IMG/VR virus record: IMGVR_UViG_2877285697_000009
DNA length: 50,710 nucleotides
Reading direction: 5' to 3' (one strand)
From: a virus
Taxonomy: Duplodnaviria > Heunggongvirae > Uroviricota > Caudoviricetes
The notes under the pieces were generated by a model. It saw only the letters and a list, made by a program, of their open reading frames with translations. It had not been told where the DNA came from and made no database searches. The number at the start of each line of letters is the position of its first letter. Position 1 is the first letter of the stretch. Positions 26,608 to 26,934 of this stretch are shown here, one piece after another. The position numbers and the translations under genes were made by a program.

Positions 26608-26934
26608 TCAGGGTGCAGAAGGACTAAAGATAAACGTTTTCTTCACGCCTTTACACGGCCTGTCCTTCTCAAATCGCCATTTTGCCATCGCCTTTACAAC
26701 CTGCTCATCAAACAAATGGTGCGGCTCTGAACGGATAAACTCAATTCGGGTGACAGTACCATCAGCACCAATATCAAACTTCACATCAACCCGTCCCTTT
26801 ATATAATTTGCCGCTGCATAGGCCGGATATTGTGGTAATGCCTTAACCAACTGTCGGGGCATATCTGTTTTATGTTGCGTACAGCCCATAACCAGAGAAG
26901 ACAACAAAATAATTAACGGAAGGTTTCTTTTCAT
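26608..26934 (-). CDS. Putative lipoprotein with TonB C-terminal-like domain
   Basis: Starts MKRNLPLIILLSSLVMGC (signal peptide and lipobox-like Cys); C-terminal region YPAYAAANYIKGRVDVKFDIGADGTVTRIEFIRSEPHHLFDEQVVKAMAKWRF resembles the TonB C-terminal domain; RBS GGGAATG upstream. Confidence 0.6.
   Translation of the reverse strand: MKRNLPLIILLSSLVMGCTQHKTDMPRQLVKALPQYPAYAAANYIKGRVDVKFDIGADGTVTRIEFIRSEPHHLFDEQVVKAMAKWRFEKDRPCKGVKKTFIFSPSAP

Follow-up and report, generated by a model that had tools for sequence, protein, structure and literature searches.

What does a phage gain from TonB's C-terminal domain when the rest of TonB is missing? The question is raised by a gene at positions 26608-26934, minus strand, of the IMG/VR viral record IMGVR_UViG_2877285697_000009, a Caudoviricetes sequence of 50,710 nucleotides that we call the window and that is a lambda-like prophage. 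We find that the product is a member of the TonB_C domain family and not a TonB energy transducer, and that the gene is functional and under purifying selection. By analogy with known inhibitors of TonB-dependent transport, we tentatively propose that the protein may be a dominant-negative TonB mimic that interferes with TonB-dependent phage, colicin and siderophore uptake, a reading that we favour but hold with reserve. Annotation by domain (as 'TonB family protein' or 'TonB fragment') and a listing as a moron were already known; our contribution is to recognise that these stand-alone TonB domains, with their predicted lipid anchor, make up a family that is widespread and under selection, and to put forward the functional hypothesis.

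A TonB C-terminal domain behind a lipoprotein signal

The gene is a minus-strand open reading frame that ends with a stop codon at 26608-26610 and encodes a protein of 108 amino acids. In-frame start candidates on this strand are GTG 26949, ATG 26940 and ATG 26934. The last is favoured, because a GGGAA motif precedes it and because RefSeq also starts there: the product is identical to WP_000828068.1, 'TonB family protein' (100% nucleotide identity). The two lines of evidence agree on the coordinates 26608-26934 of the original prediction, which are thus correct. We note that the domain and structure runs used a form of 110 amino acids (start at 26940), whose residue numbers equal those of the 108-residue form plus 2. 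The features of the gene are as follows.

26608..26934, minus strand: coding sequence of the TonB_C lipoprotein (open reading frame, RefSeq identity, and Pfam, NCBIfam and PDB matches)
26940..26944, minus strand: Shine-Dalgarno-like GGGAA, with a 5-nt spacer to ATG 26934 (read from the sequence)
26881..26934, minus strand: signal peptide and lipobox, MKRNLPLIILLSSLVMG-C18 (pattern tests)
26623..26859, minus strand: TonB C-terminal domain, residues 26-104 in 108-residue numbering and 28-106 in 110-residue numbering, gapless against E. coli TonB 153-231

A likeness to the TonB C-terminal domain had been suggested from scattered motif positions, and profile searches bear it out. The protein matches Pfam PF03544 (TonB_C) with 54.8 bits (E = 1.3e-14; cut-off 24.6) and TIGR01352 with 54.5 bits (cut-off 27.1), and phmmer aligns 79 residues with TonB chains of the PDB without gaps (E ~1e-15 to 1e-16). 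Identity to E. coli TonB 151-235 is 31/85 (36%), within an overall range of 36-39%. The TonB positions Y163, P164, F180, F202, W213 and F230 are identical, so that the aromatic core is kept, and Y38-P39 (110-residue numbering) align with Y163-P164 of the YP motif. Substitutions relative to E. coli TonB include R158 to K, Q160 to L, R166 to Y and Y215 to F.

Structure prediction and superposition agree with this alignment. A single-sequence AlphaFold2 run was unusable (predicted local distance difference test score, pLDDT, 51.5), and the model was remade from a 35-sequence alignment, reaching a pLDDT of 85.6; residues 31-100 are modelled best, their block means being 95-98. Foldseek superimposes this model on the TonB C-terminal domain 1u07 with a root-mean-square deviation (rmsd) of 1.0 Å over 83 columns, on BtuB-bound TonB (2gsk_B) with 1.1 Å over 81 columns and a target TM-score of 0.94, and on FhuA-bound TonB (2grx_C) with 1.1 Å over 76 columns. 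Target TM-scores across the three structures lie between 0.89 and 0.94, and the model thus has the alpha/beta fold of the TonB C-terminal domain (helices and a three-stranded sheet), receptor-bound forms included. Pfam, TIGR01352, the gapless PDB alignment and the model all describe a complete domain. In the BFVD library of viral structures there was no significant structural neighbour (best E = 0.59). Codon 94 (108-residue numbering; 26653-26655), in the loop preceding the last strand, is polymorphic: the window and phage 21 have Cys, whereas Arg is encoded in O157 and in roughly every second IMG/VR copy of the window's allele (type A, below).

Only a lipoprotein signal of 18 residues and a short tether (about 8 residues) precede the domain, with neither an inner-membrane anchor nor a Pro-rich spacer; the energy-transducing N-terminus is absent, as had been proposed. 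TonB equivalog models (PRK10819 and others) match over their last ~80 positions only, with 49-74 bits against cut-offs of 265-448. Without an inner-membrane anchor, an ExbB/ExbD-coupling region or a Pro-rich spacer, energy transduction by this protein is impossible.

The signal itself (MKRNLPLIILLSSLVMG-C) begins with a basic n-region, continues with a hydrophobic core of 12 residues and ends in a lipobox. The sequence MKRNLPLIILLSSLVMGC, in which the signal ends …LVMGC, matches both PROSITE-style and G+LPP lipobox patterns, and the lipobox Cys is in register in 31/35 aligned relatives, in line with the lipoprotein signal first proposed. In four Serratia members, an Ala-x-Ala signal of the signal-peptidase-I type takes the place of the lipobox; periplasmic export is thus the common denominator of the family. 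Lipoproteins with a residue other than Asp after the Cys (position +2) are sorted to the outer membrane by the Lol pathway. Position +2 is Thr here, and S, T, A, V or G among the relatives, with Asp in none of the 35 aligned sequences. Because of this Thr, the protein is predicted to be sorted to the outer membrane and anchored in its inner leaflet, facing the periplasm.

The gene is widespread, intact and under selection

A gene-only blastn search finds the gene in 1616/5426 complete E. coli genomes (~30%), in 1-4 copies. Two alleles can be distinguished. Type A, the allele of the window (at least 95% nucleotide identity), occurs in 414 genomes and is carried by Stx1a-converting phages, JLK-2012, Lys8385Vzw and O157 prophages. 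Type B (75% nucleotide and 72% amino acid identity) occurs in about 1200 genomes; its carriers include phage 21, ev017, the LF82 prophage Perceval and several PhiR phages, and in the ST131 strain JJ1887 it lies beside iss. A relative with 40% identity is found in a Klebsiella phage, likewise between the lysis cassette and terS, and 220 IMG/VR viral contigs carry a relative. The slot between lysis and terminase genes is constant across E. coli phages with differing packaging modules and J proteins, as well as in the Klebsiella phage.

Between types A and B, the ratio of non-synonymous to synonymous substitution rates (dN/dS) is 0.13 (dN 0.18, dS 1.37). All 80 of the 80 type A copies retrieved from IMG/VR are intact, and their codon variants comprise 19 synonymous against 8 non-synonymous changes. 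The low dN/dS, the intact copies and the retention of the gene in a prophage with a split terL (see below) together establish that the gene is functional and under purifying selection.

Phages carry a member of a distinct lipoprotein family

An exhaustive HMMER search returned 4570 TonB_C proteins, and among the best matches is a set of 107-133 amino acids with the same architecture. A profile search places such proteins in Klebsiella, Raoultella, Salmonella, Rahnella, Pantoea, Erwinia and Serratia, all of them named just 'TonB family protein'. These chromosomal lipoproteins of ~110 amino acids share architecture and motifs with the phage protein, are 33-52% identical to it and form one cluster with it in a neighbour-joining tree of the domain; they differ in their non-phage neighbourhoods and, in the four Serratia members, in the type of signal. 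In this tree, the phage alleles cluster with the lipoprotein family (52% identity to the Klebsiella/Raoultella type) and not with enterobacterial TonB (39%). The family also has motifs of its own, namely YPYYA, SEPxHLFD and KWRFExxKP.

From the tree grouping and the family motifs, we infer that phages captured a member of a pre-existing family of stand-alone lipoproteins. An origin from TonB by loss of the N-terminus, which the original prediction implied, finds no support, since the protein groups with a distinct family of ~110-residue lipoproteins and not with enterobacterial TonB.

Transcription in the lysogen

A promoter is predicted upstream of the gene:

26967..26994, minus strand: predicted sigma-70 promoter with extended -10, ATGACC-16-TGtTAGAAT (consensus scan)

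An alignment of upstream regions reveals that the promoter core TGT[T/C]AGAATAAGAC and the ribosome-binding site are conserved in the phage 21 allele. Transcription of a type B gene has been recorded in strain LF82, where a list of morons includes LF82_160 of prophage Perceval ('TonB fragment', 327 nt), expressed 8-fold above the prophage background (PMC9928086 Table 1). Its product is 72% identical to that of the window (tblastn), the same match as for phage 21. The normalised level of the LF82 gene is ~56, versus ~10 for Rz and ~16 for terS (PMC9928086 supplementary table). Within macrophages, the TonB_C transcript stays flat (log2 fold change 0.26) while bor rises (log2 fold change 7.1; PMC9928086). 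With this indirect support from the sister allele, the gene of the window is probably expressed in the lysogen from its own promoter. The gene is co-oriented with the late operon, and late read-through is presumed on that account. A possible Fur box near the predicted promoter was considered and rejected: only 10-11/19 positions agree, counted by eye, and the LF82 transcript is unchanged in macrophages.

An open Ton-box edge and a candidate TonB mimic

E. coli TonB engages the Ton box through parallel pairing by strand 226-231 and through packing of F230 on Ton-box Val10. In the nuclear magnetic resonance structure, this edge is occluded by an additional strand, residues 235-239, whose place the Ton box has to take by exchange (PMC6118199). 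The phage protein retains the pairing strand as KTFIFS, with F at the F230 position. Position 103 (110-residue numbering) is hydrophobic in 33/35 relatives and position 105 in 35/35, as expected of a strand that turns one side to the core. The chain of the phage protein ends in a Pro-rich tail, SPSAP, at the position that corresponds to TonB residue 235. Because the protein ends there, the edge could not be covered by an extra strand, and the pairing edge would be permanently open.

These features suggest a mechanism, which we give conditionally and which follows the original idea that competition for TonB boxes could bring superinfection exclusion or colicin resistance. A TonB C-terminal domain, exported and lipid-anchored at the periplasmic face of the outer membrane, would use its exposed last beta-strand to pair with the Ton boxes that ligand-loaded transporters (FhuA, BtuB, FepA, CirA and others) extend. 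Host TonB would be kept off, and the transporter would stay locked. Expression would come from the gene's own promoter in the lysogen and presumably also from late read-through. The outcome may be reduced sensitivity to T1/phi80-type phages, group B colicins, some microcins and sideromycins, at the cost of a partial loss of siderophore and B12 uptake. Ton boxes are more likely to be the target than host TonB.

Precedents exist for parts of this scheme. As cited in PMC9841981, TonB overproduced in the periplasm is reported to inhibit iron import that depends on TonB (Howard 2001, J Bacteriol 183:5885), and a Ton-box pentapeptide lowers colicin killing and phi80 infection (Tuckman & Osburne 1992). 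Llp of phage T5 is a periplasm-facing outer-membrane lipoprotein that jams FhuA, and its authors propose that lipoproteins targeting TonB-dependent transporters are common among coliphages (PMC9586334).

Several points weigh against a TonB mimic. The relatives in Raoultella, Klebsiella, Serratia, Pantoea and Erwinia lie in ordinary chromosomal loci of species-representative genomes, and these loci differ between genera: the Raoultella neighbourhood contains lacZ/lacI, that of Serratia minCD...dsbB/nhaB/fadR. Near these chromosomal relatives no proteins of the window or of phage records were found, save a DUF1440-type membrane protein shared with a Klebsiella phage. This suggests a role in host physiology that phages have borrowed and that is not necessarily directed against other phages. 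The residues by which TonB contacts receptors are also not kept. TonB R166, which contacts Glu56 of FhuA, is replaced by Tyr here and in 29/35 relatives, and the Q160 equivalent is Leu here and variable in the family; as judged from the sequence, the family may have a partner unlike that of TonB. Stoichiometry is a further difficulty, as TonB-dependent transporters outnumber TonB and compete for it (PMC9841981), so that a Ton-box decoy must be abundant. Inhibition by TonB fragments, as published, required overexpression, whereas the LF82 transcript is modest (PMC9841981, PMC9928086). Blocking TonB costs iron and B12 uptake, and the tether between lipid anchor and domain is only ~8-10 residues long. 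Finally, PADLOC defence models gave only a chance-level match (E = 0.023), and our literature search found no paper that characterises the function of this protein.

As a side observation on the chromosomal loci, the DUF1440-type membrane protein gene follows the lipoprotein gene in Raoultella and Klebsiella, and a 60% identical protein occurs in Klebsiella phage ST13-OXA48phi12.4 (locus 277-903).

The gene lies between the spanin genes and cos

The surroundings of the gene in the window are as follows.

29415-29630, minus strand: holin
28482-29015, minus strand: lysozyme
27527..28000, minus strand: Rz i-spanin, the end of the lysis cassette, upstream of the TonB_C gene
27589-27774, minus strand: Rz1 o-spanin lipoprotein, embedded in Rz
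27279-27503, minus strand: 74-amino-acid gene remnant directly after Rz
27083..27260, minus strand: conserved non-coding stretch upstream of the TonB_C gene
26276..26476, plus strand: YlcI/YnfO (DUF3950) family gene, between the TonB_C gene and cos
26058..26069, minus strand: cosN, an exact match to the lambda cohesive end, GGGCGGCGACCT, 540 bp downstream of the TonB_C gene
25340..25888, minus strand: Nu1-type terS (small terminase subunit)
from 24499-25410 onward, minus strand: terL, interrupted by an IS66-family element
33780-33985, 34064-34310, 41432-41519 and 41544-41620, minus strand: Rfam-matching stretches (STnc100, tRNAs, C4, isrK)

Rz/Rz1 upstream and cosN downstream confirm that the gene occupies the accessory slot between Rz and cos. 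It had also been said to sit where lambda carries bor; as a replacement of bor this fails, since bor/iss and the TonB_C gene stand side by side in phage 21, in Perceval and in ST131 JJ1887. In JJ1887 and phage 21 (locus 3233-4333), the type B allele is 480 bp from iss/bor, which makes the much-studied chromosomal iss locus of extraintestinal pathogenic E. coli an immediate neighbour. In other carriers, the lysis region includes a KilA-N or antirepressor gene, which in JLK-2012 separates Rz from the TonB_C gene and in O157 AR-0428 lies upstream of the Rz-like gene.

At its C-terminus, the prophage's J protein resembles that of long-tailed Stx phages; its identity to lambda J is 55%, with no phi80-type tip among the J matches listed. 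A role linked to the phage's own receptor finds no support, given that J is not of the phi80 type among these matches and that the gene is found with different J types.

The non-coding stretch 27083-27260 accompanies the gene in both alleles and is also present in many Stx phages that lack the gene. Over its ~180 nt, conservation between the loci of the two alleles seems higher than in the coding sequence (75% nucleotide identity), and its part 27083-27200 is 98-100% identical in many Stx1a/Stx2a phages without the gene. A structured RNA was not detected in 27083-27260 (no Rfam match at the gathering threshold or at E <= 1; fold z = -0.42). The stretch could be a recombination junction or a regulatory element. 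Matches at the Rfam gathering threshold lie elsewhere in the window: the small RNA STnc100, a C4 antisense RNA, the Hfq-binding RNA isrK and, downstream of the Q region, three tRNA genes.

An IS66-family element (tnpA, tnpC) at ~21200-24462 splits terL into a piece at 24499-25410 and one below 21200; the prophage is probably packaging-defective through this split, with the TonB_C gene still intact. Insertion-sequence accumulation in this prophage is also indicated by a second transposase-like open reading frame (PHROG 157; 30625-31443, minus strand), which lies between the holin region and a nanS-p-like gene of 574 amino acids (31833-33557). The 74-amino-acid frame at 27279-27503 matches only positions 100-172 of the 291-position PHROG 2571 and appears to be the leftover of a bigger accessory gene. 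Complete RefSeq E. coli genomes cover at most 82% of the 10-kb stretch (best BEN2908, 97% identity). Just upstream of cosN, GATGATAATCATTATC (26103-26121, minus strand) agrees with the 19-bp Fur-box consensus at 15/19 positions in a by-eye count. The likeness is probably coincidental; we take this segment to resemble the right end of lambda near cosQ.

Alternative explanations

The protein might instead be an envelope or virulence lipoprotein, in which the TonB_C fold serves as a generic periplasmic binding module for an outer-membrane protein or peptidoglycan and contributes to envelope robustness or host interaction. The Bor/Iss lipoprotein confers serum resistance, and the slot is common to bor/iss, which are adjacent to the gene in phage 21 and ST131 JJ1887. 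Non-phage chromosomal orthologues in several Enterobacterales, the family's own motifs (YPYYA, SEPxHLFD, KWRFE), the Tyr in place of TonB R166 and the occurrence of TonB_C-like domains outside TonB, for instance in gliding-motility proteins that figure among the NCBIfam matches, all fit such a role. However, the protein is closest to genuine TonB C-terminal domains in both sequence and structure and keeps the Ton-box-pairing strand, its LF82 transcript does not respond to macrophages (log2 fold change 0.26, versus 7.1 for bor), and its gene neighbourhood is not conserved and so suggests no alternative partner. We regard this explanation as unlikely, though it survives better than those that follow.

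The same loss of uptake would result if the protein acted on TonB and not on the transporters, sequestering scarce host TonB at the outer membrane, for which far fewer copies would suffice. Crystal forms of the TonB C-terminal domain are presumably dimers joined via the very strand that is exposed here; the physiological relevance of such dimers is debated, which counts against this idea, as does an identity to the E. coli TonB domain of just 36-39%. In its favour, the phage protein retains TonB's aromatic core, and the best PDB match, 1u07, is titled as structurally different from shorter TonB C-terminal fragments. TonB C-terminal domains cut at different points adopt several distinct conformations (PMC6118199). 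TonB is limiting relative to its transporters (PMC9841981), and titrating it would consequently be more economical than titrating Ton boxes. We consider TonB sequestration quite unlikely.

A function in the lytic cycle, from the late transcript, might be to stop progeny from adsorbing irreversibly to receptors on infected cells or debris, as has been proposed for T5 Llp, or to help the lysis machinery. Since the gene directly follows the lysis cassette in the same orientation, Q-antiterminated read-through should reach it, and lipoproteins of this kind are recognised as useful in preventing non-productive adsorption (PMC9586334). PHROG 1267, the best PHROG match (E = 5.7e-43), is labelled 'Rz-like spanin' and thus counted as a lysis family. 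Yet the prophage already has a complete Rz/Rz1 pair, and the protein has neither the C-terminal transmembrane segment of a u-spanin nor the Pro-rich body of an o-spanin. It is also transcribed in the LF82 lysogen (type B) while late genes are silent, and relatives occur outside prophages. The J protein is like that of long-tailed Stx phages and not of the phi80 type among the matches listed, and the gene travels with different J types. A lytic function is, in our judgement, very unlikely. A spanin identity in particular is rejected, given the separate Rz/Rz1 and a globular TonB_C body with no C-terminal hydrophobic segment; the label of PHROG 1267 is probably an annotation error that is spreading to phage genomes. 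The PHROG scan had no Cor/Llp or exclusion family among its matches.

That the gene is a non-functional tonB remnant picked up by a phage, an idea that comes solely from annotation as 'TonB fragment' or as 'partial tonB-like membrane protein', is scarcely credible given its own lipoprotein signal and complete domain, the dN/dS of 0.13, the 80/80 intact copies, its presence in 1616/5426 genomes, its grouping with a distinct lipoprotein family and its transcription (LF82, type B); we reject these labels on the selection, family and tree data.

Comparison with known systems and implications

A dominant-negative TonB mimic thus remains the reading that we prefer, and it can be set beside known systems. 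The TonB C-terminal domain (PDB 1U07, 2GSK, 2GRX, 1XX3; residues ~150-239) has the same fold and topology, aligns over 79 residues without gaps and shares the YP motif, the aromatic core and the Ton-box strand. Unlike TonB, the protein described here has no N-terminal anchor, Pro-rich spacer or link to ExbB/ExbD, and is predicted to be lipid-anchored and sorted to the outer membrane. Engineered periplasmic TonB fragments, as cited in PMC9841981, are likewise uncoupled TonB periplasmic domains; they are soluble, overexpressed laboratory constructs, in contrast to a natural and selected protein of a distinct family with a predicted lipid anchor.

Among phage proteins, Llp (T5) and Cor (phi80, N15, T1) are small, periplasm-facing outer-membrane lipoproteins that disable a TonB-dependent transporter from inside (PMC9586334). 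Llp binds a non-native plug conformation of FhuA and not the Ton box, and its fold is unrelated to that of the present protein (PMC9586334). A TonB mimic would moreover be receptor-generic, while Llp and Cor are receptor-specific. Bor/Iss shares with the TonB_C protein the Rz-to-cos slot, expression from the prophage and the nature of an outer-membrane lipoprotein (predicted in our case), with no sequence relationship. The genes differ in that bor is transcribed against the late operon and the TonB_C gene with it, and their regulation differs in LF82; they coexist in phage 21, Perceval and JJ1887.

Iron and B12 enter through TonB-dependent transporters, and so do many coliphages, group B colicins and microcins, along with albomycin-type antibiotics and siderophore-cephalosporins. 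Llp and Cor disable one receptor each, whereas a TonB-domain mimic acting at the shared coupling step could hit all of these routes together. About 30% of complete E. coli genomes, O157 and ST131 included, would then carry an outer-membrane-tethered TonB mimic as a receptor-generic brake on TonB-dependent entry; we consider this broader statement conceivable, if on balance doubtful. Were it true, the protein would represent a new class of superinfection exclusion and bacteriocin resistance that strikes the energy-coupling interface and not a single receptor. Susceptibility to sideromycins and siderophore-cephalosporins could be shifted, and an effect on iron acquisition would be possible. Even without a TonB phenotype, the role of a stand-alone periplasmic TonB domain in several enterobacterial genera would still be a question. 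If the proposed mechanism is true, the relatives in Klebsiella, Serratia and Pantoea would constitute an unrecognised layer in the regulation of TonB-dependent transport.

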